Below the pieces are notes generated by a model, which was not told the origin of the DNA, made no database searches, and was given only the letters and a program-made list of their open reading frames with translations. A stretch of DNA of 64,000 nucleotides from Deltaproteobacteria bacterium (GTDB taxonomy: Bacteria > Desulfobacterota > Binatia > Bin18): NCBI GenBank assembly GCA_016874775.1, contig VGTJ01000002.1, positions 8,700 through 72,699 of the forward strand, given 5' to 3'. Position 1 is the stretch's first letter. Each line of letters opens with the position of its first letter. Shown piece by piece: positions 12,252 to 64,000 of this stretch. Made by a program: the position numbers and the translations under genes.

Positions 12252-12326
12252 TGCTCGTCTTCACTCGCAGGAACTTTTACGCGAAGATTACGTTAAATGA
12301 GAGAGCTTTCTACGAAAGGGATACGT

Positions 12327-18670: not shown

Positions 18671-18813
18671 GCTAGAGCGATTCCCACCTCGCCCTCCACC
18701 TTACACGGATGGGATACGCAATCAAAAGCCCCGTCATAAATTGTCTTGTCACATTCCGGCGGGTCACATCTGTCCCATGATTCACATCGTGGGCTGAAAT
18801 ATATCGTCATGCT

Positions 18814-19085
18814 CCACGGTTAACACCGTGGGCTATAATCTGCCGCCTCTCCGAGGCTCATGAAGAAGTGACAATTCACCAACGAGCCCCGTTAGGGGCG
18901 ACATAATGCAGCCCATAGCGTGAGCTATGGGGAATCGGCAAATGACACGATCGTCATTCTCGCCAACGCCCCCACGGTTAACACCGTGGGCTGTATAATG
19001 TCGCCCTTCCAGGGCTCAACGAACCTCGCTAGGGGTGACACAATACAGCCCACAGCGTGAGCTGTGGGTAACTGTGGGGAACCGT
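18814..19085 (+). repeat. two tandem copies (~157 bp each) of a hairpin-rich intergenic element, REP-like or a candidate structured RNA
   Basis: Copy 1 spans 18814-18970 and copy 2 spans 18971-19085. Each starts with the perfect palindrome CCACGGTTAACACCGTGG. Three further hairpins follow in each copy. Their stems differ between copies by compensatory changes: GCCTC/GAGGC versus GCCCT/AGGGC, and CCCATAGC-GTGA-GCTATGGG versus CCCACAGC-GTGA-GCTGTGGG. The GTGA loop is a GNRA tetraloop on the plus strand. Confidence 0.6.
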
Positions 19086-39170: not shown

Positions 39171-39193
39171 CGCCAGCAGGAGACGAGAAGCGT

Positions 39194-40267: not shown

Positions 40268-40287
40268 ACGCAGAAGGAATAGCGGCC

Positions 40288-44421: not shown

Positions 44422-44919
44422 ATGAACCTGTACCGGATCGCCACTCTTGTTATCGTGCCGTGGTTGGGCCTTTTGACAGCGACATCCTCTTCGTTCGGGG
44501 AAACATCACAGCCTGCTACGGTTATTGCAGCCTCACCAGAACAGGCCCAACAACAAGCTCCATTATTCACCTTTTTGCAGGGCTATTTCTCGTCGTTAGC
44601 CCAAGGCGAGGTGAATAAACTGGCCCAGTACCACCCCACCCTGACGACAGAGCAACTTTCTACTTTGCAAGGCTATTTTTCTCACACGATTCGTGACTTA
44701 CACATCGATGTGCGCAATGTACAAGTCCAGCTCACGGCGAATACCGCTACGGTCTCGTTTTTCCGCACCGATCGTTTTATTGATCGCCTCACAGAACGAC
44801 AGATCGAAAAGAGTATTCAATTGTCGACTGTTCTTGAATATGGTGCAAATGGGTGGCGGCTCGGCGGCCTTGATCAGGTCGCGTTTGCCTTAGTGCCGCG
44901 CACCACTCAGGCGGGGTAG
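44422..44919 (+). CDS. small secreted NTF2-like/SnoaL-like protein, paralogous to the C-terminal domain of the adjacent Ser/Thr kinase
   Basis: The signal peptide is MNLYRIATLVIVPWLGLLTATSS. The core LQGYFSHTIRDLHIDVRNVQVQLTANTATVSFFRTDRFIDR resembles the kinase C-terminus LEGYKSYSVSFRDVSVRNEGNRAVVRFIRVDTIDGK. Confidence 0.5.
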   Translation: MNLYRIATLVIVPWLGLLTATSSSFGETSQPATVIAASPEQAQQQAPLFTFLQGYFSSLAQGEVNKLAQYHPTLTTEQLSTLQGYFSHTIRDLHIDVRNVQVQLTANTATVSFFRTDRFIDRLTERQIEKSIQLSTVLEYGANGWRLGGLDQVAFALVPRTTQAG

Positions 44920-44929
44920 ACAAAAAAGC

Positions 44930-50900: not shown

Positions 50901-51199
50901 CCAAGCGTCACCCCCTCGATGTACTCCATGACAAAGTAGTAGAGGTTCAGAGTCTCATCGCGCTCGATATCAAGGACACGAACGATATTGGGATGGTTAA
51001 GCCGAGCCATGACGCGCGCTTCCCGATAGAAGCGGTTCACCATGTCTTCGTTTTCCATCAAATACGCAGGCAGGACCTTGAGGGCAGAGATGGTGTCGAG
51101 GGCGGTGTGGCGAACTTTATACACCAGCCCCATGCCACCTTGACCCAGTTGGCCAACAACCTCGTACTTGCGGGAAATCACCATCGGCTTAGTTGCCAT
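44930..51199 (-). CDS. giant (2089-aa) Hanks-type Ser/Thr protein kinase: N-terminal kinase domain, a ~1100-aa degenerate helical repeat region, TM helix, a ~300-aa K/E/A-rich TolA-like spacer, C-terminal NTF2-like domain
   Basis: The kinase domain has GQGGMGLVYKV, the K in ALKVL, HRDIKPANIMI, DFGIAKE and GTLKYASPEQ. Repeated W..A..W...Y..A..Y and RFA.EFA blocks follow. The TM helix is VVAGIAAFVVVAALGFYF. Then come KAEQEKAAKAEADRLKAEQ repeats, and then the NTF2-like domain. Confidence 0.9.
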   Translation of the reverse strand: MATKPMVISRKYEVVGQLGQGGMGLVYKVRHTALDTISALKVLPAYLMENEDMVNRFYREARVMARLNHPNIVRVLDIERDETLNLYYFVMEYIEGVTLGKYIREKGPLPLPEILRISRQVAEALGYAHGHTPPIIHRDIKPANIMIEDHSSRVVVMDFGIAKELGDGDSTKTGMVIGTLKYASPEQLRHEQLDGGADVYSLGMVMYEMCTGRQFFGGLDEHAVLGKVLYDTKENEPHFDRPTPAAFADLLTRAIAKNRAHRYHSMRELLQALESCRNLSADGEDTGTLILSGLGKKEEKKQEAQADDDIEDQIRKLEEERERRRILSLQTQAREARERATRDGASEWAATLLQQGMTAEGHGAKSLRDKDFTAAQQAFDEAIQIFTQAAAEAQTAAAKRKAEQARGNMAAAKEEAEHYGARGHARTRYARALTLESQADEFLEKGDFQHAAHGYSEAARSFADAREQAYRETLKDEAEKAHARATAAKAAAEEQGATRLAANLFREAADQEQRASAAITHEEFTQARELYLAAAQKYERAQQEAVNEQQRLETVAVQQQAKEAQRQAEDAQARDLASPLYQQATLFQKQGDTQLQAKAYDKAKQAYLQARDRYEQATQEAATEQDRQATAAVRQQLQQAQVQADQAEAKERAASSYQQIQRLVAEGQEHEKREQYRESRHRYTEAAQRFQQLARECAVLAAREQADTARQKMAEVVQGSEPLQAWAKENWAQARERVQRADQAYQKQEYRSATDLYTQAAKAYTQARTNAEQEQLQQEVRDAQQQAQSAKTRAEQREATRYAAELWRDGLAALSDAEKQIRTKELRAAIQRYWRAAELLAKAADDAQRERHRQEAVSARQRTTEARQIAEKSGAAQRFATDFAKASHLVEQAAQAETQENFSQASEAYQQARQLWERLGGEAFRQAEKEKAEAARKRAAESRNGLAGLTEWRGAKWADAERTEAEANAAWEAQQYAKAAEAYDRVTQRYIEARTEAEKARHAAEIERQRRRALDAQQQAEEARAEAQRAEAERYATALFQQGAQTAQQAEQQMHAQHWNDASQAFAQARSLWSQAAHDAQQERARQAVIALRQRLEAAQVAATEAAVHSRFAQEFARAQQVVVRGQQAETQQDFSQASDLYEQARQQLLRLRRDADVEAAREDAAAARQQMLQAKENASELKQWANAQWEAAQKQEADAERAFSDQDYENALAQYTQTAQLYTTAATAGEQERLRQETAAAEKQAGTAKKQAEEVDAPRYAATDFNQAAAALDEASRHQRQQKFSQATREYRHAEELFVQAKGTAQHEYAKQEMLAALQRAEEAGSAATQSSAEQRFPREFAQVRGLFERGQAAQKKDDFTTARQNYEQAQQQFIKLVQAVQQQIAQEEADVVRQQAAQAKQAASTLAPRFAAARWKEAQTSETEGEKAWQAQAYEQARAHYAQAAQIYEYAQAEAEVEEQQQRALLANQEAKGRQREADAVHAPQYAADLYRQAQEVREQAEAALAAKQFEESVTLSAQAGELFGQALGIARLARAKQAATESQKRAVAAQAEAQAVRSEEFLPGQHVEAMSELHKAEQALADEKFDAARDQFDRNVSRWKQIRQESEVAWQKHEAEGARTRAYELRQQTQTAKGKQKKSAEKFITTGDQSFQQKRYPQALASYNEASALLSALQQQETEVHPLLDQGPTTEGERTSRPVPVDAPSPARQSSPVVAGIAAFVVVAALGFYFSRGGESVNPQKPSTQQAQEEEARKAAQANAAQEEEARLKAEQAKADQLKAEEERRKAEEVAKSQKAEDDRRKAEEVAKAQKAEEDRRKAEAAKAEADRVKAEQAKAEKLKADQEKAAKAEADRLKAEQEKTLRAEAERLKAEQEKAAKAEADRVKAEQAKAEKLKADQEKAAKAEADRLKAEQEKAAKAEAERLRAEQEKTARAEEERRRAEEAVRQRAAEEERRKAEAARLAEEERLAKVQREETERAKEAGPPSDREAMNWLETIYRPAWENKNTDALVQLGEISAQDATRLRGILEGYKSYSVSFRDVSVRNEGNRAVVRFIRVDTIDGKTLALPPKEVKLEKSNGGRVARTR
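45420..45770. repeat. near-identical in-frame tandem DNA repeats (165-bp period with ~82-bp sub-period) inside the kinase gene
   Basis: The unit starting TCAGCTTTGGCTTGTTCGGCTTTCACACGATCGGCTTCCGCTTTTGCCGC at 45516 recurs at 45681 with only 1-2 mismatches. The repeats encode the duplicated ...AKAEADRVKAEQAKAEKLKADQEKAAKAEADRLKAEQEK... segment. Confidence 0.7.
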
Positions 51200-51214
51200 G
51201 GGTGGACTTCCGAG

Positions 51215-52000
51215 TTAGCCAGCTACGGTTGGATCTTCAATGTACGACAGAATGATGATCGTACTGTTATCTCGGCCCCCACGTTCATTGGCGAGATTGA
51301 CCAGCGCATCACACGATTTTTCGAAATCTGGAGCGGTCTCGTTAATGATACGAAGCATGTCGCTATCTTCAACCACCCCATGAATCCCGTCACTACACAA
51401 GAGGTAAATATCTCCGGATTGGGGCCGTTCGAGCCGCACTGAAGGTTGGACAAGTGGACTCACCCCAACGGCTTGTGTCAACACATGACGGTGCGGAAAT
51501 GTCTTGACTTCTGTTGGTCCGATTTTGCCTTCACGGAGTAACTGCTGCACAAGCGAATGATCTTCCGTGAGGAGCTCAATCGTACCATCACGAACGCGAT
51601 AGACGCGAGAATCGCCAACATGACAAATCCCGGCAACGCTTTCGTGCTCATCAAACAAGACAGCAGCCACCGTTGTCCCCATGCCATTGAGGGCCGGGTC
51701 CTGCTGGCTCATCTCGAAAACTTTGTTATTTGCTCCCTGGATTGCGAGGAAAAGACGACGACCAGCGACCGACGACCAGCCATTCTCGGTTGTGATGGGC
51801 GTCAGATCTTCTCCCTCAGTTTCCTGGAGAACCCCATGCATCGTTTCTACAGCTAAGGCACTTGCGCGCTCTCCCCCGAGATGCCCCCCCATCCCATCCG
51901 CCACGATATAAAACGCCGCCTCGGGAAAGAATCCGGAGGAGTCCTCGTTTTTCACACGCACCTTACCCGTGTCGGTTTTAACTGCGCCACAGATGGACAC
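51215..52000 (-). CDS. PP2C-family Ser/Thr protein phosphatase
   Basis: It uses a GTG start with AAGGAG RBS. VKTDTGKVRVKNEDS...ADGMGGHLGGERAS is the PP2C metal-binding motif set. It ends 15 nt upstream of the kinase gene on the same strand, in the PstP-PknB-like arrangement. Confidence 0.85.
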   Translation of the reverse strand: MSICGAVKTDTGKVRVKNEDSSGFFPEAAFYIVADGMGGHLGGERASALAVETMHGVLQETEGEDLTPITTENGWSSVAGRRLFLAIQGANNKVFEMSQQDPALNGMGTTVAAVLFDEHESVAGICHVGDSRVYRVRDGTIELLTEDHSLVQQLLREGKIGPTEVKTFPHRHVLTQAVGVSPLVQPSVRLERPQSGDIYLLCSDGIHGVVEDSDMLRIINETAPDFEKSCDALVNLANERGGRDNSTIIILSYIEDPTVAG

Positions 52001-52228
52001 GGAACGCTCCTTTCACAACAATACCAGTATTTTTGAGGAATCGGCTGTTTCTATCCTTTTTTTTAGCCCCCTCAGTCAGTTTTAGCAAATACATTTTACT
52101 CTTTGCAAAATAAGAGATTTTTCATACCACAGAAGGTCCCATACACTAAGTACAAACACGGAGTCTGTAGTAGCGCGTGCCATGCGCACAAATTATGACG
52201 CTGAATGGCAGCGTGCACGCAGCGCCCG

Positions 52229-53752
52229 CTACACTGTGGAGCTTTGGCTTCTATCTTCTCTACCGTCAAACGTATACCCCATCCCCCCAGATGGAATAAA
52301 ATCAGCCCGGAAGCCATCGTCATTAAGAGGCATAATAGCGCCAAAAAAGATTGACCCCGAGACCCCCAACACGTAACGCAGACCAAAAGAGATGTCGATG
52401 ACATCATTGCGTTTGAACTTAAAGGGAAAACGGAAGGGAGGGCTGTCGCCGAGGGTACAGGGGTTCGCTTGTGAGCACGATGAAGCCGGACGGGAGAGAG
52501 AAAATCCGGCAAGCCCACTGCCTTTGCCAGGTTGCAGCCGACCAAAATCGCTCCTGCCAATAATATCGATCCCCGCGCCGAGCCGTTTCCATACAAGCGC
52601 GGCAACACCGACAGAGTAGAGGAATGCACTGCGATCCATATTCTTAGTGTTAAAATCCACCCCCAGATTCACATGTGGTTCAATGCGATCCCACATCACT
52701 TGCGACAAATAAATAAACGGGCTTACGTGCGTTTCACCGGTACCATGAAAGTTGTCCTCGTCTCCACTCGGGAGGCGCAGTTCCAAGCCCGCTGCGGCAC
52801 CACCTTGTTCCCCACCCCAGAGCCGGTATTTCGTTCGCAGCGAAATATCACCGACCCCGGTCGCACTTCCCGCCACCTTGGTTAATGTTCGTCGTCCGCG
52901 ATTGGCAGCAAAAAAGCGGGCTTGGGTCAGGTCAACTGGTTGGAGAGAAGAATTGAGTAACGCAAGGTTGACATTCCCTTGTCGGTCGACATTCGACACG
53001 AGAAACGCATCGGCCGTTATAGCTACGGGAATGAGATCATGGCGCACCCGTAAGAAGGTATTCACTATGGGGATAGAAATGCCAACGTCCCAGTTCTCCG
53101 TGAGTCCGTAGCGGAAGGTAGGCACGGCCAGATGCGTCTGAATATGCATCCGGGTGCGGACCGAAGAAAGTCCAAGGGCAGCAATCCTCAGCAACGATCC
53201 ATCATCGAGAAATCGCCCGCACAGTGGATCAAGGAACAACGGCAATCCAGCCGTAGATGGGCAAAACGCTTCGAGCAGTAATGGACTACGCTTGTTCTGC
53301 AAGCTCCCGCCGTTGACGTCATCCAAACCGACATAGGAATAGCCAATACCGAAGTTGAGTTGCCCTTTCCCAAGGGTGAGCGCGCGCTCGCTAAAAAGGG
53401 GACCAGGCACACTGGTGGAGCGTTCAAACACACTCAACGAGGGGATGTAACGATAACTGAAAGCAGGGGCAACTGACGCCAGTGGGGATTGTTGCGTCAC
53501 AGCTTGCGCAACTGCAGCGGAAAGCGCTGGAGCTAACCCCTGCCCTGCGGTGGAGAAGGCAAAAAAATCCGCCCTTCCATCAGCGGCAGTAGGGAATACC
53601 AGGTTCGTAATCAGGAGTGGATTTCGTGGAATCAGATCAAACCCTTCACCGAGCACCGTTGTTAAGTTGCGTGCCTCACTCCGCGACCACGCCCCCCACG
53701 CAACTATTTGCACCACAATGAGAACGATCACACAGCGGTTGAAACATTTCAT
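52229..53752 (-). CDS. outer-membrane beta-barrel protein candidate, paralogue of 54205..55584
   Basis: GGAGG RBS precedes the ATG at 53752. The signal peptide is MKCFNRCVIVLIVVQIVAWGAWS. The sequence has alternating amphipathic strands and is aromatic-rich with Phe/Tyr near the C-terminus. The block SVFERSTSVPGPLFSERALTLGKGQLNFGIGYSY also occurs in the divergent neighbour. Confidence 0.5.
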   Translation of the reverse strand: MKCFNRCVIVLIVVQIVAWGAWSRSEARNLTTVLGEGFDLIPRNPLLITNLVFPTAADGRADFFAFSTAGQGLAPALSAAVAQAVTQQSPLASVAPAFSYRYIPSLSVFERSTSVPGPLFSERALTLGKGQLNFGIGYSYVGLDDVNGGSLQNKRSPLLLEAFCPSTAGLPLFLDPLCGRFLDDGSLLRIAALGLSSVRTRMHIQTHLAVPTFRYGLTENWDVGISIPIVNTFLRVRHDLIPVAITADAFLVSNVDRQGNVNLALLNSSLQPVDLTQARFFAANRGRRTLTKVAGSATGVGDISLRTKYRLWGGEQGGAAAGLELRLPSGDEDNFHGTGETHVSPFIYLSQVMWDRIEPHVNLGVDFNTKNMDRSAFLYSVGVAALVWKRLGAGIDIIGRSDFGRLQPGKGSGLAGFSLSRPASSCSQANPCTLGDSPPFRFPFKFKRNDVIDISFGLRYVLGVSGSIFFGAIMPLNDDGFRADFIPSGGMGYTFDGREDRSQSSTV

Positions 53753-53805
53753 ACGATTGCACCTCCAGAGAAGACTCACATTCCCCGCACTCAATCAGAA
53801 CAGCA

Positions 53806-54204: not shown

Positions 54205-55584
54205 ATGAAGAAAATACTGTTGGCTATCGGGGTGGTGCTCGGCGCTGTACTTCTCACCGCTCCGGCGTTTGCTCGCAACTTACGGTCCTCATTGGAGAAC
54301 TCCCTCTTTGGTGGCTCACAATCGATTTTTCTTACTGTTCGCAACCAGGCATTTTTCACTGGTTCTGATTTGCCCGACTCGCTCGTATTACTTTCGGCGG
54401 ACCGCAACTCCAAAAGTTTTGGTCGACCGATCCAAACTGCAGGCCCTGGCGGTATCGCCCGCCTTTTTTCGCGCGGCTTGAGCGGAAACATCCTCACTGA
54501 GAGTGCAGTAATTCCGCTTCCCTCTGGGAGTGCGGGTTTTGAATATACGTTTAACCCGACCTTGAGTGTGTTCGAGCGGAGTTCGATTGGACTCGGTGCC
54601 ATCTTTAGTGAGCGCGTGAATACCCTCGGGAAAGGGGTGTTCGCTTTTGGAGTCTCTTATGTTCGACAAGACTTCGACACCTTCAACGGACAGCCATTGT
54701 CGCGATTACAGTTAAATAACAAGCTGTTTCCTGGTCAAGATTCCCTCGGCCCCTTTTTAGACACCGGCATTGTCCAAGGACAAGTCAATCTCAAGGTCAA
54801 AACCAATTCCGTCGCTATCTACGGCATTTACGGGATCACCGATTGGATCGATGTGAGCCTCTTACTACCACTCACGGAGATCTCGTTACGCGCGAGGTCG
54901 ACACTGCAGCAGGGCAGTCAGACACTCCGAGATGACTTTGCAGCGTTCCTGCCAGATCCACGGTGCGGCATCGATCGCGCCAAAGCCAACCAATGCCGCA
55001 TTTCTGATTTTATTATTCTCCGTGGCTCACCAAGGGAAGGCGTGGGTACTCGTTTTTCATTCCTTCAACGGACCCAGCGCAACACCGTCGATAAGAGCCG
55101 CTTTGGGGTGGGAGATTTGCTGATCCGAGCAAAAGCGCGGTTGCTGGACAGTTACTGGGGATCATTCGGGAGTTTAGCCGAGCTGACTTTTCCTACTGGG
55201 AATAAGAACAATTTTCTTGGCGACGATGCCTTCAAAGCGCGCTTTTTGATCCTCTATTCGAAGAACTTGTTTGCCAATCGCCTCAATTTTCATCTCAACG
55301 GTGGTGGAAAGATTACAACCCAATCATCCAACAAAAACACGCTCGAATACGCTACTGCCGTCGATTTCATGGTTACGCCTCGCTTCTCGTTAGTAGCAGA
55401 AATGTTGGGTTCGTGGCGTGTGGACCCGGAAGGATTGCCGCGTCATTTCTTGGATGGAGCCTTTGGTTTTAAGGTGAATCCGTTTGCGGGTCTCATCCTC
55501 AACGCCAGCTTCCGTCTTCCCGTTACCAATGACGGACTCCGCTCCGATCTCGTCTATCTGGCGGGATTGGAGTACGACTTTTAA
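54205..55584 (+). CDS. outer-membrane beta-barrel protein candidate, paralogue of 52229..53752
   Basis: GGAGGAGGA RBS precedes the ATG at 54205. The signal peptide is MKKILLAIGVVLGAVLLTAPAFA. The C-terminal ...YLAGLEYDF ends in Phe, a classic OMP beta-signal. The shared block is SVFERSSIGLGAIFSERVNTLGKGVFAFGVSY. Confidence 0.55.
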   Translation: MKKILLAIGVVLGAVLLTAPAFARNLRSSLENSLFGGSQSIFLTVRNQAFFTGSDLPDSLVLLSADRNSKSFGRPIQTAGPGGIARLFSRGLSGNILTESAVIPLPSGSAGFEYTFNPTLSVFERSSIGLGAIFSERVNTLGKGVFAFGVSYVRQDFDTFNGQPLSRLQLNNKLFPGQDSLGPFLDTGIVQGQVNLKVKTNSVAIYGIYGITDWIDVSLLLPLTEISLRARSTLQQGSQTLRDDFAAFLPDPRCGIDRAKANQCRISDFIILRGSPREGVGTRFSFLQRTQRNTVDKSRFGVGDLLIRAKARLLDSYWGSFGSLAELTFPTGNKNNFLGDDAFKARFLILYSKNLFANRLNFHLNGGGKITTQSSNKNTLEYATAVDFMVTPRFSLVAEMLGSWRVDPEGLPRHFLDGAFGFKVNPFAGLILNASFRLPVTNDGLRSDLVYLAGLEYDF

Positions 55585-55608
55585 AAATACTTTTTAGTTA
55601 AGTTGAGG

Positions 55609-55680
55609 CATTACCCTCACCCGTACTCGCTCCGCTCGTACTGCCCTCTCCCTGGCAGGGAGAGGGATAGGGTGAGGGTC
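55609..55680 (+). terminator. compound GC-rich hairpin downstream of the OMP gene
   Basis: The outer arms CCCTCACCC...GGGTGAGGG enclose an inner hairpin, CCCTCTCCC-tggca-GGGAGAGGG. It starts about 25 nt after the stop at 55584 and lacks a clear U-tract. Confidence 0.4.
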
Positions 55681-55817
55681 GTAAGTGGAGGTCCTATGGT
55701 AGGTTCAATCGCAAATTGCTCTAGCCTTTGCCATTTTCCCTTTCTGGGGCCCCGCCTTTGCGGGAATGACATGGGAGACAATCTACGACAAACAAGATCG
55801 CACCAAGGAGAACGCTC

Positions 55818-56426
55818 ATGAAGAACACTCTGCGACTCTTAGGCTCTTTCCTAACCGCGCTGCTGTTCGTGACTCGTACCGACGCCGTCATGGTCACGCC
55901 GTTCAACATCGAAGAACTGACGCAACGCGCGGACAAAGTCTTTGTCGGCACCTGTACCAAGGTCTCCCGCAGCGTGAACGCGCAGGACATTCCAGTGCTG
56001 GAAGTCACGTTCACTGTGACCGAAGCTGTGAAAGGCGACGTCGGTCAAACAGTCACCTTCCAGCAACTTGACCCCCAAGGGCAGAGCCTGCCGACAACAA
56101 AACCACACCCAGACGAACGCATCAGTGAAGCGCCTCTGGGTATTTTCTCTGCGGCCAAGATTGCTGGCCTACCAACCTACAGTGTAGGCGAAGAAGCGGT
56201 GGTGTTTCTTGCCGCACCAGGCAAGCTCGGGTTAACCACACCGATTGGCCTCACTCAAGGGAAGTTACCAGTGACTACGCTTGCCTCTGGTCAAAAAGTC
56301 GTCACCAACAGCAGCTTACGCAAAAGCGCTCTCACCGACAGTGCTCTCCCAGAGCCTGGCAAGGAAGCACGGTATGAACGCTTCTTGACTGTTCTACGCA
56401 CGATCGCAGGCTCACGGCAGCAGTAA
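55818..56426 (+). CDS. secreted hypothetical protein, co-oriented with and sharing a duplicated 5' leader with the downstream metalloprotease gene
   Basis: AAGGAGAACGC RBS precedes the ATG. The signal peptide is MKNTLRLLGSFLTALLFVTRTDA. No domain is recognised. Confidence 0.5.
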   Translation: MKNTLRLLGSFLTALLFVTRTDAVMVTPFNIEELTQRADKVFVGTCTKVSRSVNAQDIPVLEVTFTVTEAVKGDVGQTVTFQQLDPQGQSLPTTKPHPDERISEAPLGIFSAAKIAGLPTYSVGEEAVVFLAAPGKLGLTTPIGLTQGKLPVTTLASGQKVVTNSSLRKSALTDSALPEPGKEARYERFLTVLRTIAGSRQQ

Positions 56427-56451
56427 GGAGAACCATAAAAGGAGAACGCAC

Positions 56452-58617
56452 ATGCAAAAAATACTGAGGCTCTTAGGCGCTTTCTGGACTGCCTTGCTAC
56501 TGCTGGTCCTGAACCTTTGCACTCTGCTCAGCCAAGCCCATGCTGGAGCACCGTTGTTTTACAATGAATCCACTGGGCAACCCTTTTCCTGGGTTGATGG
56601 CCGTGCCTTCTATGTGGTGGAGACTGGCGATCTCGGTACAATTGGTAATCTTCAGGCAAGAGAGATCGTCGACCGCGCATTTCAGCGCTGGGTGACCCTT
56701 CCAGGGGTGGTCCTACAGGCCGACAATTTAGAACGCATTCTCCCTCCCCTTCCACCTGCCGTACTCGCGCCGTTCCAACGTGATCTCACAATCGAGGACT
56801 TCACTACCATGGTGCCATGTCAAGTTTTTGGGAGCGACGGTCCTGATCGTCAGCGTACTCGTTTCGCTTGTGATGTCCGCAAAGCGTGCCTCGATCAAAA
56901 TCTTATAAACTGCCCCAGTCCCATTGTCTTCGACAACGATGGACAAATCATCGAGCTTATATTCGGAAAAGATAGCGGGGTCGTTGGTGTTTCTGGTCCC
57001 GAATTATTCATCCCGTCCGCAAGTGCTATCATTGGCGGCTCTGCAGTGATCAATGGCGCCGAGTTTACTGCTAAAGCTGAGCAGGCACGGATAGCAAATG
57101 AACCAGCTGATACCAATGTAAATTTTCTTGAAAGCGTGCTGGTCCATGAGATCGGTCATTTCCTTGGTATCGGCCATGGATCGGTGAACGGCGACACCGC
57201 CCTCTTGAATCCTTCAGTGCGCCGCCTGGCCACACAAGTAGCACCGGTAGCCCCAAGCACACTCATCTTTGCACCCGTCGATCAATTGTCGGCAGTCAAT
57301 GCCATCCACGTTGAGACAATGTATCCTACGCTCCTGAGCGGTAACCAGTTCAGCACTCCAGAACGCGATGATGAAAGTGCACTGGCAACACTGTACCCCT
57401 GCACCCCTAAGGCTGCAGCCAGTCAGCGCTGCTCGCGCCCGACCTCGTCGACCGGAACGATTGCCGGTCGTGTCTTCATCCCCGATCCGAACATGCCTGG
57501 TCAGTTGAAACCCGCACAAGGCGTCTTGGTTGTTGCCCGGAAAATCGATCCAGGAGACACGTTTGGCAGTTTGCGCGAAGCAGTTTCGCAGATCACAGGC
57601 AGTTCTTTTGCCCCAAGCCGCTGTAATGGTGTCCTTTTCAGTGACGACAACAACGACAACCAACCTGGTGCTGATGAAGTGCAGTTTCGTGGCCTCTTCG
57701 GCGCATGCTCGCGAAACGATGACCCATTCGGCGCTGGAGTAGAGGAGTGTAAAACGCAATTGAACGGGAAATTTCCTTCGGCTGCCTATCGTTTCCGCGG
57801 CTTCTGCGGCTTCTTGAAGCTTGGCTTCGGCTTGCCCCGCCCAGTGGGAGCACCAGAAGAAAATACGTATACGTTGGCAAACCTCACTCCTGGCAAGTAC
57901 CTGATCCACGCTACCCCGGTTTTTCAAGGCGGATTTTCATCTCCGGTGCGCAGCACTTCAGGGCTCATTGGCTTAACCGGTCAGTTAGATCCTGTGATCA
58001 ACACGGATGACAACACCAAGTTTGCCTTCTTTCCCAACCCACAGATCGGTGAATTCTACAACGGTCCGATAACAGGCTGTGGTTCCGACATCACTGTCTG
58101 TGGGGACGAAAAGCCGAACGCCACCGATAACCCTTTTGTATACTCGTTGATCGATGTCAAACCCGGAGAGCGAGTCAGCAACATCAATATTTTGATGAAC
58201 ACGTCGGAAGTGGACTTTTTACGCGATCCTGGCTTTCAGCTGTGCACCGTCGGAGATGTCAACAGCGACAAGTTGGTCAATCGGGACGACGTGCTCGCGG
58301 TACTCAAAGAAACAGACAAGTCCGAGAGAGGGAAGAAGTTCAACCAGAAGGCTGATCTGAATCAGGATGGGAAAGTCACGTTTTTTGACGTCGATCTCAT
58401 CACCGACGTTGTGACCCTTCCCCGTCTCACACCTGACGCCACGCAGCAAGAATTGAAACGAGCGATTGCCCCATTCGATGCTATTTGCCGCGCGGCGGCA
58501 AGCGGCGATTGCGCAATCGAAGCCCCAGCCTCGGATATTCAGGAGGACGGCAAAGCAAGCGAAGCGACCTGCACCCGGGCAAAAGAACTTGGCTGTCGCG
58601 TGATCGACTGTCCGTAA
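56452..58617 (+). CDS. secreted metzincin-type zinc metalloprotease with a C-terminal dockerin-like (type I) Ca-binding module
   Basis: The signal peptide is MQKILRLLGAFWTALLLLVLNL.... HEIGHFLGIGHG matches the HExxHxxGxxH motif. The C-terminal paired loops GDVNSDKLVNRDDVLAV and DLNQDGKVTFFDVDLI form the dockerin repeat signature. The RBS and leader are nearly identical to those of the upstream gene. Confidence 0.75.
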   Translation: MQKILRLLGAFWTALLLLVLNLCTLLSQAHAGAPLFYNESTGQPFSWVDGRAFYVVETGDLGTIGNLQAREIVDRAFQRWVTLPGVVLQADNLERILPPLPPAVLAPFQRDLTIEDFTTMVPCQVFGSDGPDRQRTRFACDVRKACLDQNLINCPSPIVFDNDGQIIELIFGKDSGVVGVSGPELFIPSASAIIGGSAVINGAEFTAKAEQARIANEPADTNVNFLESVLVHEIGHFLGIGHGSVNGDTALLNPSVRRLATQVAPVAPSTLIFAPVDQLSAVNAIHVETMYPTLLSGNQFSTPERDDESALATLYPCTPKAAASQRCSRPTSSTGTIAGRVFIPDPNMPGQLKPAQGVLVVARKIDPGDTFGSLREAVSQITGSSFAPSRCNGVLFSDDNNDNQPGADEVQFRGLFGACSRNDDPFGAGVEECKTQLNGKFPSAAYRFRGFCGFLKLGFGLPRPVGAPEENTYTLANLTPGKYLIHATPVFQGGFSSPVRSTSGLIGLTGQLDPVINTDDNTKFAFFPNPQIGEFYNGPITGCGSDITVCGDEKPNATDNPFVYSLIDVKPGERVSNINILMNTSEVDFLRDPGFQLCTVGDVNSDKLVNRDDVLAVLKETDKSERGKKFNQKADLNQDGKVTFFDVDLITDVVTLPRLTPDATQQELKRAIAPFDAICRAAASGDCAIEAPASDIQEDGKASEATCTRAKELGCRVIDCP

Positions 58618-58652
58618 CCGTTGTACCAGGGCATCCCCGTAGTTGTTCACGT

Positions 58653-58686
58653 GAGGGCCAGGCAGTTCCTGAGCCCTCTTTTTTTC
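58653..58686 (+). terminator. rho-independent terminator
   Basis: GAGGGCCAGG-cagtt-CCTGAGCCCTC is followed by TTTTTTT, and starts 36 nt after the protease stop. Confidence 0.6.
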
Positions 58687-58894
58687 TTCGTTCGCCTCGT
58701 TTCATAAAATTCCATAAAAATTCTCAGAAGGGAAACCGAAAGCCACGAGACTTTTTGCACGCAGGATGATAGGAGCTGGAAGCGCTAGAGAAAAAGAGCT
58801 GTTGACCCTTGCATCACGGATTGTATTTGTGTGACAATCTTCCCCAGGGGGCTGCTCATCACTACCTGTCGTCGCTTCTGTGCAGCAATGGAAT

Positions 58895-60160
58895 ATGAGA
58901 CACTTGCTTTTTGCCTTGGTGTGCGCCGTTACGATGGTCTGGGGCTCAGTGGTCATCGCACAAGATGACAAAGGCTCTCAGACCGCTCTTCCTGTATCCA
59001 CTGCTCATGAGTTGTTTGGCAAGCAGTGTGGGCTGTGTCACGAACCGTTCAAAGGAGCCCCGGAACAACTGTGCATCAAGTGTCATGCGGGCCCACTGCA
59101 TGCCGCAACACAGACCGTGACCCCACCGTGCATTTCTTGCCACGTCGAACACAAAGAACAGAAAAAGCTCGCGGCGGTGACCAACGAACAGTGCGTGACC
59201 TGCCATAAAGACCTGAAGGTAAAAGATAGTGCGCCAACCTTTGCGAAAAAAGTCACGAGCTTCGCGAGCGATCACCCTGAGTTTGCCATTTCACTCAAAA
59301 GTGGCATCGGGATAAAACGGGTACGCCTGAACGAAGCAGGTGGGAACCAAAGTGACCGCACGACATTGACGTTCCCCCATGATGAACATCTTAAAGCGGA
59401 CCTCAAAAGCCCCAAGGGTCAGGTGACATTAGCGTGTAAAGATTGCCATGCCACGGCAGATGACGGGAAACAAATTGCTCCGATCGTCTATGAAAAGCAC
59501 TGCAAAAGCTGCCATGAATTGGTGTTCCCTGGCATGCAGAACAATCGGCCTGCACCTCACGCTGAGCCCTCCATCGTGCACGGTTTCTTAGTCGTAACCT
59601 TTGCAGAACGGCGGGCGGATACTCCTCCCCCCTCCCCTTCTACTCCGCCGCTGCTCCTTTCTCCTGGGCGGCTCACGCGACCGGTGGAATCGGTGTCACC
59701 TGTAGTGACGGCCCCGACTTCAGGCCAGTCGGTGGCTGCGGCAGAAAAACATTTGTACACGATCACCTGCAATTTCTGCCATGCGGTAGAAAATCCGCAG
59801 GCACGCATTCCGACCATTGCACGCGTTGCTATTCCGAAGGTGTGGCTCCCTTATGGCCTCTATCCCCATAGAGATCACCGACTGTTAGAGTGCGCCGCAT
59901 GTCATACCGATATGGCGAAGAGCAAATCCGCGAAAGACGTCAACCTGCCCAGCATTAAAGTCTGCCAACAGTGTCATCGCGCGGATGTACAAGTGGCGAC
60001 GGCCACCTCGTCGTCGCAACACACTGCGACGACGAATTGTGTTTCCTGCCATCTGTATCACGATAAGACGAAAGATATCGATTGGTTAGGGAATTTCACC
60101 GTGCAGCGAGTCTTAACTGAAGGAGACGACCCCAAAGCAGTAGGGCAAACGAAAAAATAG
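58895..60160 (+). CDS. secreted decahaem c-type cytochrome
   Basis: The signal peptide is MRHLLFALVCAVTMVWGSVVIAQD. There are ten CxxCH motifs: CGLCH, CIKCH, CISCH, CVTCH, CKDCH, CKSCH, CNFCH, CAACH, CQQCH and CVSCH. The track ORF starts at a GTG five codons upstream. Confidence 0.85.
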   Translation: MRHLLFALVCAVTMVWGSVVIAQDDKGSQTALPVSTAHELFGKQCGLCHEPFKGAPEQLCIKCHAGPLHAATQTVTPPCISCHVEHKEQKKLAAVTNEQCVTCHKDLKVKDSAPTFAKKVTSFASDHPEFAISLKSGIGIKRVRLNEAGGNQSDRTTLTFPHDEHLKADLKSPKGQVTLACKDCHATADDGKQIAPIVYEKHCKSCHELVFPGMQNNRPAPHAEPSIVHGFLVVTFAERRADTPPPSPSTPPLLLSPGRLTRPVESVSPVVTAPTSGQSVAAAEKHLYTITCNFCHAVENPQARIPTIARVAIPKVWLPYGLYPHRDHRLLECAACHTDMAKSKSAKDVNLPSIKVCQQCHRADVQVATATSSSQHTATTNCVSCHLYHDKTKDIDWLGNFTVQRVLTEGDDPKAVGQTKK

Positions 60161-60327
60161 TAAGCGCAAGAGTTCACGGAACACTTTCGACTCTTCATTC
60201 TCGACAACCACACTTCAGGCAATTCCCTGAGTGCTCCACAGGCCGAGTTGACCGACTTTACGACAGTTCACCACTTGTGCTACTCTACGTTGATCAGCGC
60301 ATCGGGTGGGTAGGAAGGACAACACGT

Positions 60328-62022
60328 ATGCTGAGAATACGACTCTCGACTGGAGTGCTATTTGTACTGCTTTCTGTATCTAGCTTCAGTCTCCCCTCTT
60401 TTACAGCCGCACAGGCGTGTAACCCAGCAACCCCTCCGCTGTGCGCTAGTGAGGTCCAGGCTATTATTGACACAGCCATCGCGGTCACTGACCAGCCTCT
60501 GGTCGTGGCTGTCGTCGATCGGGTCGGGAATCCGCTCGCAGTATTCCGTAAGAGTGGAGCGCCGACACAGGTTGCAGGAAACTTCTCGGGTGAGGCGTTG
60601 CTCAGTAATCCACGCTATGACGCTGCAGAAGTTGCGCTTTCTCTTGCGCGAACAGGAGCGTTTTTTAGCCACAACCAAGCACCACTGTCATCGCGTACCG
60701 TCCGCTTCATCAGCGGCATCCATTTTCCCCCTGCAGTCAGATTCACTCCCAACGCCGCCTTGTACGGCATCGAAAATACCAATCGCGGGTGTGAATTTAA
60801 CGCCACGTTTAATGACGGCAAAGAGGTTCCGCGTGCCAAGGCACTCAGTGGTCTCTCGTGCAATAGTAGTGATCGTCGTGGCTGTAGTCTTGGTATTACC
60901 ACAGGAAAATTGAATTTCTTTGACAAAGACCCTGTCGACGAAGACATCGTCGCCGTCAATGGCGGCGGCATTCCCTTATTCAAAGGCAACACCGCTGTAG
61001 GCGGAGTCGGGGTCGTCGGAAATTTTTCTCCCAATCTCAATGCATCGAATGATTTCGCTGAACTGGTCGCTTTCCTCGCTGCCTTTCAGCCGAAGAAGAC
61101 GGGCGTGCTTCCCGTACCTGCATTTTTTGTCAGAGATTTGCGCGAGCGTGTGTTCATTGATGGGATTCGACTCCCATTCGTGAATCGCGATGTGGCCAAT
61201 CTCGCTGTCAAAGGTAAACTGCCCAAAGCGATCAACCCAGACCCAGCTCCAACTGGAGAACTCATCTTCCCTGCGCAAGGTGGTCCGCGCGACGGTCAGT
61301 GTTTTGATCGCGACGAGAATAATGGTGTGTGTCGCGCTGCGCCTGAAGGGTATTTGATTGGCCCCAAAGCTGGCTCGAAACTCTCGGTCGAGGAAGTCGA
61401 CCGCATCGTACAGAATTCGCTGCGGACCGCAAATGAGACACGCGCCGCCATCCGTTTTCCACGTGGGCAAAAAACCAAGATGATGATCTCGGTGGCTGAT
61501 GTAGATGGTAGTCTCCTTGCCGTCTTCCGCATGCCGGATGCGACAATTTTTAGCATTGATGTGGCAACGGCCAAGTCACGCAATGTGATCTATTTTAGTG
61601 GTGCTGACGCTAATGTCCGAGATGACCTTCCTGGGGTACCGCAAGATACGTCCATTAGTAATCGCACGCTCAGTTTCGGCAGCCAACCCCTCTATCCACC
61701 TGGCATCGATACCGGTGGCGAAGGACCATTTTTCCGCTCTTTATATATCCCAGACACCATCACCCCGTGTACACAAGGAACACAGGCGCCGAATCCGAAT
61801 CAGAGTGGCATTGTCTTCTTCCCAGGGAGTCTGCCGTTATACAGGAACGGAGAGATTATCGGTGGTCTGGGAATCAGTGGTGACGGAGTTGAACAAGATG
61901 ACTTTGTCACGGCTGCGGGAGCAGTTGGATTCGAACCACCGGATAAGATCCGAGCGGATCAGTTCTTTATTCGGGGTGCCCGTCTCGCCTATCTCAAGTT
62001 CCCAAGAAACGCCACGAAATAA
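60328..62022 (+). CDS. secreted protein with two DUF336/GlcG-like (HbpS-like haem-binding/degrading) domains
   Basis: AGGAAGGA RBS precedes the ATG at 60328. The signal peptide is MLRIRLSTGVLFVLLSVSSFSLPSFTAAQA. The first domain is ...PLVVAVVDRVGNPLAVFRKSGA...ALSLARTGAFFS. The second is ...KMMISVADVDGSLLAVFRMPDA...ATAKSRNVIYFS. Both match the conserved Vxd..G.l.A.F.R...A....s..KA.T.A.F pattern of the GlcG family. Confidence 0.45.
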   Translation: MLRIRLSTGVLFVLLSVSSFSLPSFTAAQACNPATPPLCASEVQAIIDTAIAVTDQPLVVAVVDRVGNPLAVFRKSGAPTQVAGNFSGEALLSNPRYDAAEVALSLARTGAFFSHNQAPLSSRTVRFISGIHFPPAVRFTPNAALYGIENTNRGCEFNATFNDGKEVPRAKALSGLSCNSSDRRGCSLGITTGKLNFFDKDPVDEDIVAVNGGGIPLFKGNTAVGGVGVVGNFSPNLNASNDFAELVAFLAAFQPKKTGVLPVPAFFVRDLRERVFIDGIRLPFVNRDVANLAVKGKLPKAINPDPAPTGELIFPAQGGPRDGQCFDRDENNGVCRAAPEGYLIGPKAGSKLSVEEVDRIVQNSLRTANETRAAIRFPRGQKTKMMISVADVDGSLLAVFRMPDATIFSIDVATAKSRNVIYFSGADANVRDDLPGVPQDTSISNRTLSFGSQPLYPPGIDTGGEGPFFRSLYIPDTITPCTQGTQAPNPNQSGIVFFPGSLPLYRNGEIIGGLGISGDGVEQDDFVTAAGAVGFEPPDKIRADQFFIRGARLAYLKFPRNATK

Positions 62023-62061: not shown

Positions 62062-64000
62062 ATGCGTACAAGCACATTCAGAAAAATGAAACGGAAGCGA
62101 GCATTGATTGCAGCCCTTTCGCTTCTCATCGTCACTGCGACCCACCAGAGCTGGGGCGCAGAGGCTGGAACACCCACACTCGCGATCAATCGCGGCTTAC
62201 CAATCTACACGTCCGATGTGTCTCCTCGTCTTCACGGTACGTCGACCGCGCCCCAAGGGTCACGCGTTATAGCGGTGATCGGGAAGACCACCGCCTCGAC
62301 GATCGTGCTCCCTGGAGGCACCTGGATTATCGATTGGCCGGAACGGCTCGCACCGGGCAATTACAAACTGACAGTGACGGTGAGTGACGTACAAGGAGCG
62401 AGTTCGAGCGCGGTACAAACTGTCACCATCAGTCCTCCAGGCACTGCGGTTCGGCGCCCGCTCCTCTCCCCTCCCGATGAGTTCAAACCCGTGCCGCTGG
62501 AGGAATCCGCAGAGGCAGAGTTCCAAGCCACAACAGACCGCTGGCGTATTACCCCGCCACCGTACGAAGTGAACGTCAAAGGCAGTCTGTGGGATCCCTA
62601 TAATCAGAACGTCTTGAAAGGCGACTATCCGATCTGGGGAACACAAGATGTGTTTTTGAACCTTACTGGTGCCTGGGATACGCTGACCGAGGTCCGCAAG
62701 ACACCGGTCCCAAGCGGCCCTAGTAGTGAACGCCCAGGCAGCGCACAGTTCCTTGGCAACGACACCCAATTCCTCCTGAATCAGAATTTCATTTTGTCGG
62801 CGGATCTGTTCAAGGGCGATACCGCTTTCAAACCGTTTGATTGGCGCGCGAAATTCACTTTCATTGGCAACCTTAACTATGCGTTAGTCGAAGAGCGCGG
62901 CGCCCTCTTCCCTGGCGTACGAAGAGGCACGACCCGCACCGACGGGCACCCAGCTTTACAAGAAGCCTTTGTGGAAGCCAAATTGGCCGACCTCAGCCCC
63001 AATTACGATTTCATTTCGATACGCGCAGGTATTCAGCCGTTTAACAGCGATTTCAAGGGCTTCGTCTTTTCCGATACGACCCTCGGGGTGCGGTTGTTTG
63101 GCAATTACAATAACAATTTAGATCAATACAACCTGGTGTATTTTGATCGGTTGGAGAAAGATACCAACAGCGGATTGAACCGCTATCGTCTGCGTGACCA
63201 AAAACTCTTGATTGCCAACTACTACCGGCAAGATTTTCTCGTGAAAGGGTACACGACCCAGTTTAGTGTCCATCATCTGTGGGAAGGGAAATCATTTCAC
63301 TTCGATCAAAATGATTTCTTAGTACGCCCAGACCCAGTGGGATCCTTTCGCCCACATTCCCTCAATGCGACATATTTAGGCTGGACCAGTTTTGGCCACT
63401 ATGAACGCATCAATATCGACTCGGCCTTCTACTATGTTCTTGGGCGCGACACGCGTAACCCCATTGCCGGTCGTAGTATTAACATTGCCGCGTATATGGG
63501 TGCCCTCGAACTCTCGATTGATCGCGATTGGTTACGTCCGAAGATTTCGTATTTCCACGCTTCTGGTGACGGTGACCCTCTCGACGGCAGAGGGACTGGT
63601 TTTGACGCAATTTTTGACAACCCAGCTTTTGCTGGCGGCGGATTCAGCTACTGGAACCGCCTCGGCGTGAAACTCACCGGCACCGGCGTCAATCTCGTCA
63701 ATCGCGGCAGCCTGCTACCTGATCTACGGAGTAGCAAAGATGAAGGACAGCCCAATTTCGTCAATCCCGGTATTCACCTGTTCAACGTCGGCCTCGACAC
63801 CGAGTTCACTCCAAAAGTCAAAGGCATCTTTAATGTGAACTACATGGTCTTCGACACAACCAAACCGCTCAAGTTTCTGCTGTTTCAGAAGCGGGTCGGA
63901 GACGAGCTTGGGTGGGATTTCAGTGCAGGGTTACGATACCGGCCGTATCTTAATAACAACGTCATCATTCTTGTTGGAACGGCGGTGTTTCTCCCCGGCG
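62062..64000 (+). CDS. outer-membrane protein, partial (3' end beyond the window): signal peptide, Ig-like domain, beta-barrel, possibly alginate-export (AlgE)-like family
   Basis: GAGGGGGG RBS is present. The signal peptide is MRTSTFRKMKRKRALIAALSLLIVTATHQSWGA. The beta-rich Ig-like segment is ...NYKLTVTVSDVQGASSSAVQTVTISPPG. Alternating strands follow, rich in Tyr/Phe/Gly/Asn (GDGDPLDGRGTGFDAIFDNPAFAGGGFSYWNRL). The family call is tentative. Confidence 0.4.
   Translation, partial: MRTSTFRKMKRKRALIAALSLLIVTATHQSWGAEAGTPTLAINRGLPIYTSDVSPRLHGTSTAPQGSRVIAVIGKTTASTIVLPGGTWIIDWPERLAPGNYKLTVTVSDVQGASSSAVQTVTISPPGTAVRRPLLSPPDEFKPVPLEESAEAEFQATTDRWRITPPPYEVNVKGSLWDPYNQNVLKGDYPIWGTQDVFLNLTGAWDTLTEVRKTPVPSGPSSERPGSAQFLGNDTQFLLNQNFILSADLFKGDTAFKPFDWRAKFTFIGNLNYALVEERGALFPGVRRGTTRTDGHPALQEAFVEAKLADLSPNYDFISIRAGIQPFNSDFKGFVFSDTTLGVRLFGNYNNNLDQYNLVYFDRLEKDTNSGLNRYRLRDQKLLIANYYRQDFLVKGYTTQFSVHHLWEGKSFHFDQNDFLVRPDPVGSFRPHSLNATYLGWTSFGHYERINIDSAFYYVLGRDTRNPIAGRSINIAAYMGALELSIDRDWLRPKISYFHASGDGDPLDGRGTGFDAIFDNPAFAGGGFSYWNRLGVKLTGTGVNLVNRGSLLPDLRSSKDEGQPNFVNPGIHLFNVGLDTEFTPKVKGIFNVNYMVFDTTKPLKFLLFQKRVGDELGWDFSAGLRYRPYLNNNVIILVGTAVFLPG

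Follow-up and report, generated by a model that had tools for sequence, protein, structure and literature searches.

What does a protein of no known family do when its gene stands directly in front of that of a secreted metalloprotease, and do the two belong with the multihaem cytochrome genes that follow them? The question is raised by positions 55818-62022 of a 64,000-nt stretch (the window, by which we mean that whole stretch) of a 'Deltaproteobacteria bacterium' metagenome-assembled genome (MAG), where the proteins are annotated only as 'hypothetical protein' (FJ147_00705 to FJ147_00720) and have their nearest named relatives in Candidatus Binatia MAGs. A first-pass annotation made from the sequence had placed four open reading frames (ORFs) here, all of which we confirm where it put them (Table 1): g1, the unclassified protein; g2, the protease; g3, a decahaem cytochrome c; and g4, a haem-binding-like protein. 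It had taken them for one secreted redox/proteolysis locus, which our analysis does not support, as the region consists of two independent gene sets that meet at a junction: a protease cassette composed of a beta-barrel gene, g1 and g2 (module A; g0-g1-g2, 54205-58617), and a cytochrome system that includes g3 and g4 (module B). Overall we lean slightly towards a reading of two modules in which g1 would be a dedicated partner of the TIMP/NTR type (tissue inhibitor of metalloproteinases/netrin-like) that keeps g2 latent.

The tie between g1 and g2 is genomic. GTDB genomes and JGI metagenomes yielded 30 g1 loci, or 29 when L008 and L011, which are one contig, are counted once (L-numbers denote homologous loci in other genomes or contigs, and P-numbers representatives of protein families). 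In 17 of these, the informative ones, 800 nt or more of sequence follows the g1-like stop codon. A protease gene lies immediately downstream of g1 on the same strand in 16 of the 17, from at least three phyla, and bears an HExxHxxGxxH motif in every case except L020, where it was called by its Pfam M10 match. Ten of the 16 linked loci are distant relatives at 25-35% identity (Vicinamibacteria, Thermoanaerobaculia, Myxococcales, Archangium and environmental contigs from soil or sediment), in which the zinc motif falls 480-800 nt past the g1 stop and no barrel gene is adjacent. The gap between the two genes is 25 nt in the window and elsewhere ranges from a 4-nt overlap (L016) to ~40 nt. In Archangium minus Cbm 6 (L018 5947-7371, NZ_CP043494.1), the two are fused: one ORF runs from a signal peptide straight into a g1-like domain and on through a Pro-rich linker and an M10 domain to a MYXO-CTERM-like tail. 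Of this ORF, NCBIfam NF041905 spans only the protease and MYXO-CTERM part, and P0177 and P0183 provide further read-through or adjacent g1/protease arrangements, including the reverse order. The conserved linkage and the Archangium fusion argue strongly for an action of g1 on the protease or together with it, and we regard the functional coupling of g1 to g2 as very probable.

The first-pass annotation had left g1 as an unknown 202-aa protein, and it indeed matches nothing in Pfam or NCBIfam; Pfam likewise holds no family for 149 representatives of the g1 family. A profile search of 1.84 billion representative sequences returned 3,130 clusters at E<=1e-3, 822 of which also pass E<=1e-10 (the ~3,100 clusters are defined at 50% identity), and nearly all members are stand-alone proteins of ~200 aa. 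An AlphaFold2 (AF2) model of g1 built from 22 homologues has a predicted local distance difference test score (pLDDT) of 74, with a core at 85-96, and runs from an N-terminal segment through a short helix, a long A-B hairpin, strand C, a loop and strands D-F to a C-terminal helix, an order that we take to be that of the NTR module and use as a lead, not as a test. When the model was compared with the PDB by Foldseek, ranks 1-13 were all TIMP-1, TIMP-2 or the agrin NtA domain, ranks 14-15 were complement C3b and the NTR domain of PCOLCE, and generic OB-folds (oligonucleotide/oligosaccharide-binding folds) ranked below these matches. Foldseek probabilities were 0.98-1.0 and target-normalised template-modelling (TM) scores 0.34-0.59, with root-mean-square deviations (rmsd) mostly of 3.4-5.4 Å (8.5-10.9 Å at ranks 2, 3, 7 and 12). 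On this evidence, which comes from one model and one search engine, we predict mature g1 to be an OB-fold, a barrel with flanking helices, closest to the TIMP/NTR domains.

Several observations weigh against this reading of g1. The Foldseek E-values are modest (6e-4 to 5e-2), a search of the viral BFVD models returned generic OB-folds at comparable E-values, although with much worse TM scores and rmsd, and the N-terminal segment of the model has a pLDDT below 50. At the level of sequence, Pfam detects no similarity of g1 to TIMP or NTR (PF00965, PF01759), a profile search against the PDB gives no TIMP match, and hhalign of g1 with TIMP-1 to -4 gives a probability of 0.3% (with approximate TIMP sequences). 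Cys1 of TIMP and its disulfides (Cys1-Cys70, Cys3-Cys99) are absent from g1, and the g1 family has a single conserved Cys (C46), replaced by Val in 28 of 148 members. Because there is no sequence similarity and the TIMP cysteines are absent, we have not filed g1 as a member of the TIMP family. Moreover, the g1-like gene of L017 (Hydrogenedentota) has no protease neighbour, and the AF2 model of g2 (from a 14-sequence alignment) reached a pLDDT of only 43, too low to give a cleft geometry.

The most conserved features of g1 include its mature N-terminus. Signal peptides in this study were called by eye (n, h and c regions and AxA sites) together with a Kyte-Doolittle hydropathy scan, which flagged an N-terminal hydrophobic segment in g2, g3 and g4 and did not flag one in g1. 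The signal peptide of g1 spans aa 1-23 and is cleaved between TDA and VMV, giving the mature N-terminus VMVTP; the site is of the type-I AxA kind, with no lipobox Cys in g1. Among the 149 representatives, residue -1 is Ala in 128 of 143, and the mature positions +3, +5 and +7 are Val in 117 of 148, Pro in 68 and Asn in 106, respectively, so that the family consensus reads [TS]-[MTS]-V-[RL]-P-L-N-L where this window has V-M-V-T-P. A 35-residue loop (aa 85-118) in the g1 of this lineage is variable and modelled with low confidence, and it is absent from distant members that keep the protease linkage. It had been claimed that four consecutive genes here encode signal peptides; their four products are exported, but the run is longer, as g0 upstream and g5 downstream are exported too.

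TIMPs and serralysin inhibitors block the primed subsites of their target by a free N-terminal segment, with the alpha-amine on the zinc (PMC9890683; PMC8235301). In the mechanism that we propose, g2 would be exported by Sec as a matrixin-type zinc endopeptidase with a Ca-binding dockerin-like module and a disulfide-rich tail, and g1, after signal-peptidase cleavage, would be a soluble OB-fold of ~180 aa that joins g2 in a 1:1 complex, periplasmic or on the cell surface, in which the protease stays latent. The most probable means would be the entry of the conserved free N-terminal segment of g1 into the primed side of the active-site cleft, while the dockerin-like module and g0 would probably hold the protease at the cell surface. 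A co-translated inhibitor is plausible as a source of periplasmic latency because the catalytic residues of g2 are invariant and no cysteine-switch prodomain (PRCGxPD) motif is found in g2. Drawing on the predicted fold and on these analogies, we give the proposal that g1 inhibits g2 an even chance; that it would do so by N-terminal insertion is a tentative and rather doubtful addition.

The main rival to this proposal is that g1 is a prodomain supplied in trans, a chaperone or foldase for the matrixin, whose inhibition would be a transient by-product. The g1-like domain does occupy the N-terminal prodomain position in the Archangium polypeptide, g2 carries no recognisable cysteine-switch prodomain of its own, and the g1-protease pair is tightly coupled in an operon, all as a foldase would have it. 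However, fusions are rare (one or two long proteins among the 150 best family representatives), the OB/NTR fold in solved structures is an inhibitor scaffold (TIMP, PotA) and not a foldase (PMC9890683), and the conserved free N-terminus of g1 would fit insertion into an active site better. We therefore consider the foldase reading unlikely.

If g1 is instead a dedicated inhibitor of g2, it can be compared with several known inhibitor systems. Like the TIMP/NTR domains (MEROPS I35), which are the best solved-structure match to its predicted barrel-plus-helices, it has a matrixin-type partner, a functional domain that starts right where the signal peptide is cut off, at residue 1 of the mature chain, and a conserved Pro at mature position 5. 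It differs in showing no detectable sequence similarity to TIMP, having no Cys1/Cys3 or ridge disulfides and no C-terminal TIMP domain, and it is bacterial and operon-encoded. The family occurs in Binatia, Acidobacteriota, Myxococcota and others. A bolder proposal would make it the true prokaryotic counterpart of TIMP/NTR, a set of ancient, disulfide-free matrixin inhibitors acting through a free N-terminus, with the dockerin-like module possibly anchoring the protease to g0; this we think improbable.

A bacterial parallel is the Mtz/Tim pair of Listeria monocytogenes, where a secreted metzincin is encoded beside a protein predicted to be TIMP-like by fold only, a pairing that is conserved in many bacteria (PMC8235301). 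As in Listeria, a bacterial secreted metzincin is encoded here next to a protein with a TIMP-like prediction. In Listeria, the protease precedes Tim, Tim is a lipoprotein that is cleaved and released, and the pair is governed by a phage-like CI/Cro switch (PMC8235301). By contrast, g1 precedes its protease and has a type-I signal peptide, and it has no match in phage genomes and thus shows no sign of phage ancestry of the kind seen in Listeria; the comparison of g1 with Tim is by description only. The Listeria case also points to a different role, in which g1 would be a substrate or effector of g2: clipped by the protease, it would release an OB-fold fragment to act on envelope or environment, as has been proposed for Tim. 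Mtz does cleave and release Tim (PMC8235301), and the low-confidence loop of g1 (aa 85-118) could serve as a cleavage site. Yet g1 is not a lipoprotein and has no need of release, the loop is missing in distant members that retain the protease linkage, and the conserved parts of g1 are its N-terminus and barrel core, all of which makes a substrate role very unlikely.

Potempins offer a second parallel, as their genes, in the KLIKK-peptidase operons of Tannerella forsythia, lie directly upstream of, and are co-transcribed with, those of their target peptidases, and PotA is an OB-fold barrel that inhibits the MMP-like karilysin (MMP, matrix metalloproteinase; PMC9890683). The g1 ORF likewise stands immediately upstream of its peptidase gene and is co-oriented with it. 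Potempins are outer-membrane lipoproteins of 98-132 residues, and the mechanism of PotA is 'bilobal' and not N-terminal (PMC9890683), whereas g1 has no lipobox, PotA falls outside the top 50 Foldseek PDB matches, and there is no profile match. The serralysin inhibitors APRin/Inh (MEROPS I38) are periplasmic, are encoded in an operon with a metzincin and insert an N-terminal trunk with its alpha-amino group on the zinc (PMC8235301). They differ from g1 in having an eight-stranded up-and-down barrel and a partner serralysin secreted by a type I system, and they are absent from the fold and sequence searches with g1.

The separation of this pair from the cytochromes is seen at other loci. Where g2 homologues occur, a constant triad recurs, made up of a gene of ~445-465 aa in the barrel position, a ~200-aa protein and the protease. 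It stands alone among unrelated genes, with no cytochromes nearby, in L044 and in L006, whose genome measures 5.5 Mb, and in L010 module A adjoins module B, but with the cytochrome genes on the opposite strand and in a different order. The layout of the window is common only to Binatia-type loci (L008, L009, L012, L014 and L045). The order kinase-PP2C-g0-g1-g2-g3 is seen in L008, L014 and L045; L012 has the stretch g0 paralog-g0-g1-g2-g3-g4 on a contig that stops short of the kinase position. Module B, for its part, is found without the triad in Methylomirabilota (L041), in a third MAG (L042) and in Nitrospirota (L043), with orthologues 32-73% identical to those of the window. There it opens with a cNMP/FeS (or flavin) protein, after which come a small membrane protein, an FHA/haem(/FeS/flavin) protein, a decahaem cytochrome, a tandem HbpS-like protein, a barrel, a second decahaem cytochrome (with an LVIVD match in L041 and L043) and a c554-like cytochrome.

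BLASTP confirms the orthology of the L041-L043 genes to window genes, including three at 37602-44280 (37.6-44.3 kb), where module B resumes upstream of the protease cassette; these lie 14.6 kb upstream of g3 in the window and directly upstream of the g3 orthologue in L041. Because module B is intact without the protease cassette in L041-L043 and is orthologous to both of its halves in the window, we conclude that in this lineage module A, with a kinase and a PP2C phosphatase, was inserted into a pre-existing cytochrome cluster. The inserted block comprises a 165-aa ORF, a 2,089-aa Ser/Thr kinase, the PP2C, a g0 paralog and g0-g1-g2. A single redox/proteolysis locus thus finds no support in loci where each module occurs without the other. 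A point on the other side is that the two modules do stand side by side, in two different arrangements, and so may yet be functionally linked. As a separate observation, the g2 and g4 orthologues of L014 (6600-12200, a long-read MAG) are split into several ORFs, probably by assembly frameshifts and not as pseudogenes.

The first gene of the triad, g0, has a signal peptide (MKKILLAIGVVLGAVLLTAPAFA) and a C-terminus ending in ...LEYDF, and it has no match among PDB sequences. It is 28% identical (E 2e-24) to the divergently transcribed paralog at 52229-53794, which alone of the two reaches the Pfam Phenol_MetA_deg cut-off; L012 carries both. A gene of 445-465 aa with no Pfam match lies directly upstream of g1-g2 in L006, L008, L010, L044 and L045, the genes in this place being equated with g0 by position, size and the N-terminus of the L012 copy. 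The fixed g0-g1-g2 triad of Binatia-type loci would also be expected if g1 were a periplasmic carrier or adaptor that brings g2 to the g0 barrel for export or display, with no effect on catalysis. This is highly improbable in our judgement, as the g1-matrixin pair occurs in other phyla without an adjacent barrel (in L016, for example, the upstream gene has, by eye, an LpxB-like N-terminus).

The protease itself is as the first-pass annotation had it, with the HExxHxxGxxH motif present as HEIGHFLGIGH at aa 232-242 (nt 57145-57177). Pfam Peptidase_M10 (PF00413) matches at 25.4 bits against a cut-off of 24, aligned only over aa 212-257 and profile positions 102-137 of 159, and the Met-turn VETMYP lies at nt 57310-57327, with M290, Y291 and P292 invariant. 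Among 14 homologues, the most distant at 43% identity, there is no variation at H232, E233, H236, G239, H242 or M290, and the nearest PDB sequences are MMP-16, MMP-12, MMP-8 and karilysin. The signal peptide of g2 spans aa 1-31, with cleavage between AHA and G, and the mature protein begins immediately after it at a conserved G-[ANG]-P-L-F-F-N-E (GAPLF here). We rejected the possibility that g2 is a lipoprotein, suggested by an LGLC Cys in some leaders, since that Cys is not conserved while the AxA-G site is. Downstream of the catalytic part are a beta-rich middle region, the dockerin-like module and a Cys-rich tail. This tail (58402-58614; aa 651-721) has at least five invariant Cys and ends in ...CRVIDCP; it gives no family match and contains no transmembrane segment. 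Separately, the metagenomic P0177 (711 aa) is a g2-like protease that ends in GGGC, a transmembrane segment and basic residues, like a C-terminal sorting signal, and its ORF continues into a g1-like protein with its own leader, as a reverse gene order or a read-through.

A dockerin module had also been predicted in g2, and Pfam Dockerin_1 (PF00404) does match aa 601-650 at 26.5 bits against a cut-off of 22.9. The double DxNxDxxVNxxD loop holds in part: loop 1 is DVNSDKLVNRDD, but loop 2 is DLNQDGKVTFFD and not a second 'VN' loop. The invariant Ca ligands are D602, D613, D635, N637, D639 and D646, while the N604 and D606 positions of loop 1 are not invariant; the best PDB sequence matches are Clostridium dockerins, at a weak E of ~1e-3. 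As most Ca ligands are invariant at 43-95% identity and clostridial dockerins are the best, if weak, PDB matches, the sequence indicates that the module is real and under selection. These features, with the adjacency of modules A and B in two arrangements, are also what favours a cellulosome-like alternative, in which the region is a single redox/proteolysis locus and the protease is docked by cohesin-dockerin pairing on a scaffold encoded elsewhere. Many bacteria that build no cellulosome have dockerin-like modules but no cohesins, which makes the step from a dockerin to a cohesin scaffold a weak one. No Cohesin match was found in g0, its paralog, g1-g4, g5, g6, a partial g7 and five other window proteins, each scanned individually, and the flanks hold cytochromes, a kinase, a phosphatase and barrels and no carbohydrate-active or cellulosomal context. 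With modules A and B also each occurring without the other, and the matrixins paired with distant g1 relatives bearing CarboxypepD_reg or MYXO-CTERM in place of a dockerin, this alternative is quite unlikely. The varied C-terminal modules of the partner proteases suggest generic surface retention and not a scaffold; as a matter of speculation, cell-surface retention may be their common role, with the g0 barrel as a candidate anchor.

The pair carries a further mark of its history in its leaders. What had been reported as a leader duplicated between g1 and g2 proves to be a direct repeat of 60 nt (55805-55864 and 56439-56498) with 75% identity (45/60), against a mean of 17.6 identical positions (sd 3.7; next highest 28) among 666 pairs of gene starts in the window. 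It is not an assembly artefact, since five independent assemblies encode the same g2 protein with the same leader. Leaders like copy 1 are found on g1 homologues (MQR..LLL.SF.F.LL; for example MQRNLLLLGSFIFTLLLVT in P0025), g2 homologues at 70% identity or below have a leader of the form M-x6-RWG... and none of the g1 type, and the g1-type leader occurs on g2 only in the lineage of the window and a 95%-identical relative. In L006, L008 and L010 the leaders of g1 and g2 are unrelated (28-40 of 120 positions identical). Since the leaders are unrelated in these loci and the g1-type leader of g2 is confined to one lineage, the repeat is a recent lineage-specific gene conversion from g1 to g2 that took in the ribosome-binding site (RBS) and ~16 codons and replaced the ancestral leader of g2, with copy 1 as the probable donor. 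A second AAGGAGAAC at 56425-56433, 5 nt upstream of copy 2, is probably the original RBS of g2. A possible side effect is that translation initiation of inhibitor and protease was equalised.

The cytochrome system into which this cassette was inserted consists, on the downstream side, of the decahaem g3, the tandem HbpS-like g4, the porin-like g5 and two more cytochromes, and runs beyond the end of the window. The decahaem call for g3 is exact, with 10 CxxCH motifs, but g3 is not the 'free' cytochrome it had been called: a conserved cluster of eight or more genes counts it among its subunits. It has an N-terminal signal peptide and orthologues 32-47% identical in the same position in L041, L042 and L043. 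The two GlcG/HbpS-like domains (DUF336, PF03928) ascribed to g4 are likewise borne out, its halves scoring 29.3 and 61 bits, above the cut-off of 25, when scanned separately (about nt 60448-61086 and 61444-61920). Orthologues of g4 are 51-62% identical in a family of more than 6,800 matches, are exported in all lineages examined, and lie between the decahaem and barrel genes in four of five arrangements (four lineages) and between two c554-like cytochromes in L010. The solved sequences closest to g4 are EfgA (6bws) and a PduO-type domain (5cx7), and the database label 'heme-binding protein' on its homologues is a name transfer only. Both halves of g4 resemble HbpS/GlcG/EfgA/PduO-C in passing the family cut-off, whereas known HbpS-type members are single domains of ~140 aa and g4 is an exported tandem with large insertions, in a cytochrome cluster; with low confidence, it might be an accessory periplasmic subunit that may bind haem.

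The remaining subunits were read from homologous loci. The g5 protein has a signal peptide, an Ig-like Big_13 domain and a large beta-barrel with no Cys, ends in ...NVILTF and is 670 aa long in L002, where it is followed by g6 (a 1,293-aa decahaem and LVIVD protein, 8437-12318) and then g7, a c554-like cytochrome. Across Binatia-type genomes, Methylomirabilota and Nitrospirota, g5 is 52-73% and g6 62-71% identical, while g3 and g4 are less conserved; that g5 and g6 are far more conserved than g3 indicates strong constraint or a recent lateral transfer of the cluster. In the upstream half, the 1,330-aa protein is laid out as three FHA domains, a transmembrane segment, nine CxxCH motifs, a second transmembrane segment, Fer4 (4Fe-4S) and Pyr_redox (flavin/NAD(P)H). 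Methylomirabilota conserve it along with g3-g7; in L042 and L043 its parts are encoded as separate proteins. From its domain order, this single chain could carry electrons across the inner membrane, and the layout suggests a flow from cytoplasmic NAD(P)H to periplasmic haems and on to g3, g5, g6 and g7, a direction that we infer. In such a scheme g3 and g4 would be periplasmic subunits of a multi-phylum cytochrome/porin electron conduit that extends from 37602 to beyond the window end.

Like MtrCAB, module B combines two decahaems, the periplasmic g3 and the large g6, with a barrel (g5) of ~670 aa. Unlike MtrCAB, its g6 has an LVIVD beta-propeller and no lipobox, and the set includes the tandem HbpS-like protein and the FHA/haem/FeS/flavin inner-membrane protein. 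None of g3 to g6 belongs to the Mtr, Pio or Omc families by their models: g3 and g5 match neither TIGR03508 nor TIGR03507 nor the MtrB/PioB model at E<=1, and only the c554-like neighbours give sub-threshold matches to TIGR03508. We found no description of this cluster in the searchable literature on Binatota/Binatia, on LVIVD-multihaem or on porin-cytochrome systems of Methylomirabilota and Nitrospirota.

The features discussed are listed in Table 1, for which the likely start codons of g3 (MRHLL) and g4 (MLRIRL) were revised to 58895 and 60328. The kinase gene lies in a region of strong AT skew and adjoins the PP2C and the FHA-rich redox protein, and kinase and PP2C, a pair also seen in Binatia L008 and in L045, are probably phospho-regulators of that protein. 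The other genes of the window are chromosomal housekeeping genes, among the matches listed in an alignment-based Pfam scan of the whole window and in single-protein scans. Promoter and terminator counts in a scan of 53.7-62.2 kb were no higher than expected from shuffled sequence. At 18813-19016, three Rfam Acido-Lenti-1 small-RNA matches above the gathering score lie on alternating strands within 200 nt.

Table 1. Coordinates of the genes and other features discussed, numbered from the first nucleotide of the window.
Feature	Position (nt)	Strand	Description
cNMP-binding/4Fe-4S protein	37602-39170	+	upstream half of module B, by Pfam
357-aa polytopic membrane protein	39194-40267	+	upstream half of module B
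1,330-aa FHA/haem/FeS/flavin protein	40288-44280	+	upstream half of module B
Lineage-specific insert between the halves of module B	44422-53794	.	165-aa ORF, kinase, PP2C and g0 paralog, followed by module A
Ser/Thr kinase, 2,089 aa	44930-51199	-	part of the insert
PP2C phosphatase	51215-52000	-	part of the insert
g0 paralog	52229-53794	-	passes Pfam Phenol_MetA_deg
g0	54205-55584	+	outer-membrane beta-barrel, first gene of module A
Leader repeat, copy 1	55805-55864	+	RBS AAGGAGAAC and first 16 codons of g1
g1	55818-56426	+	202-aa secreted protein
Leader repeat, copy 2	56439-56498	+	RBS and first 16 codons of g2
g2	56452-58617	+	721-aa secreted matrixin-like zinc metalloprotease
Dockerin-like double Ca-binding loop of g2	58252-58401	+	aa 601-650
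g3	58895-60160	+	421-aa decahaem c-type cytochrome, subunit of module B
g4	60328-62022	+	564-aa exported protein with two HbpS-like (DUF336/GlcG) domains
g5	62062-64000 (cut by the window end)	+	Big_13 and porin-like barrel, module B

For the biology of these bacteria, the analysis assigns g3 and g4 to a multi-phylum cytochrome/porin cluster that apparently links cytoplasmic NAD(P)H to the cell surface, and it brings out a large unannotated family with a strong genomic tie to bacterial matrixins and a TIMP-like predicted fold. To our knowledge, bacterial MMP-like proteases are poorly understood, with karilysin the only one that is well characterised, and we know of very few folds among the protein inhibitors of matrixins. 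If the members of the g1 family are inhibitors, they would be a new kind of scaffold for inhibiting MMP-type enzymes and would explain how prodomain-less proteases stay latent during export, a hypothesis that the cultured family host Archangium minus makes testable. It would also bear on the origin of the animal MMP/TIMP system and, should the family be the prokaryotic counterpart of TIMP, regulation by an MMP-TIMP pair would not have been invented by animals.

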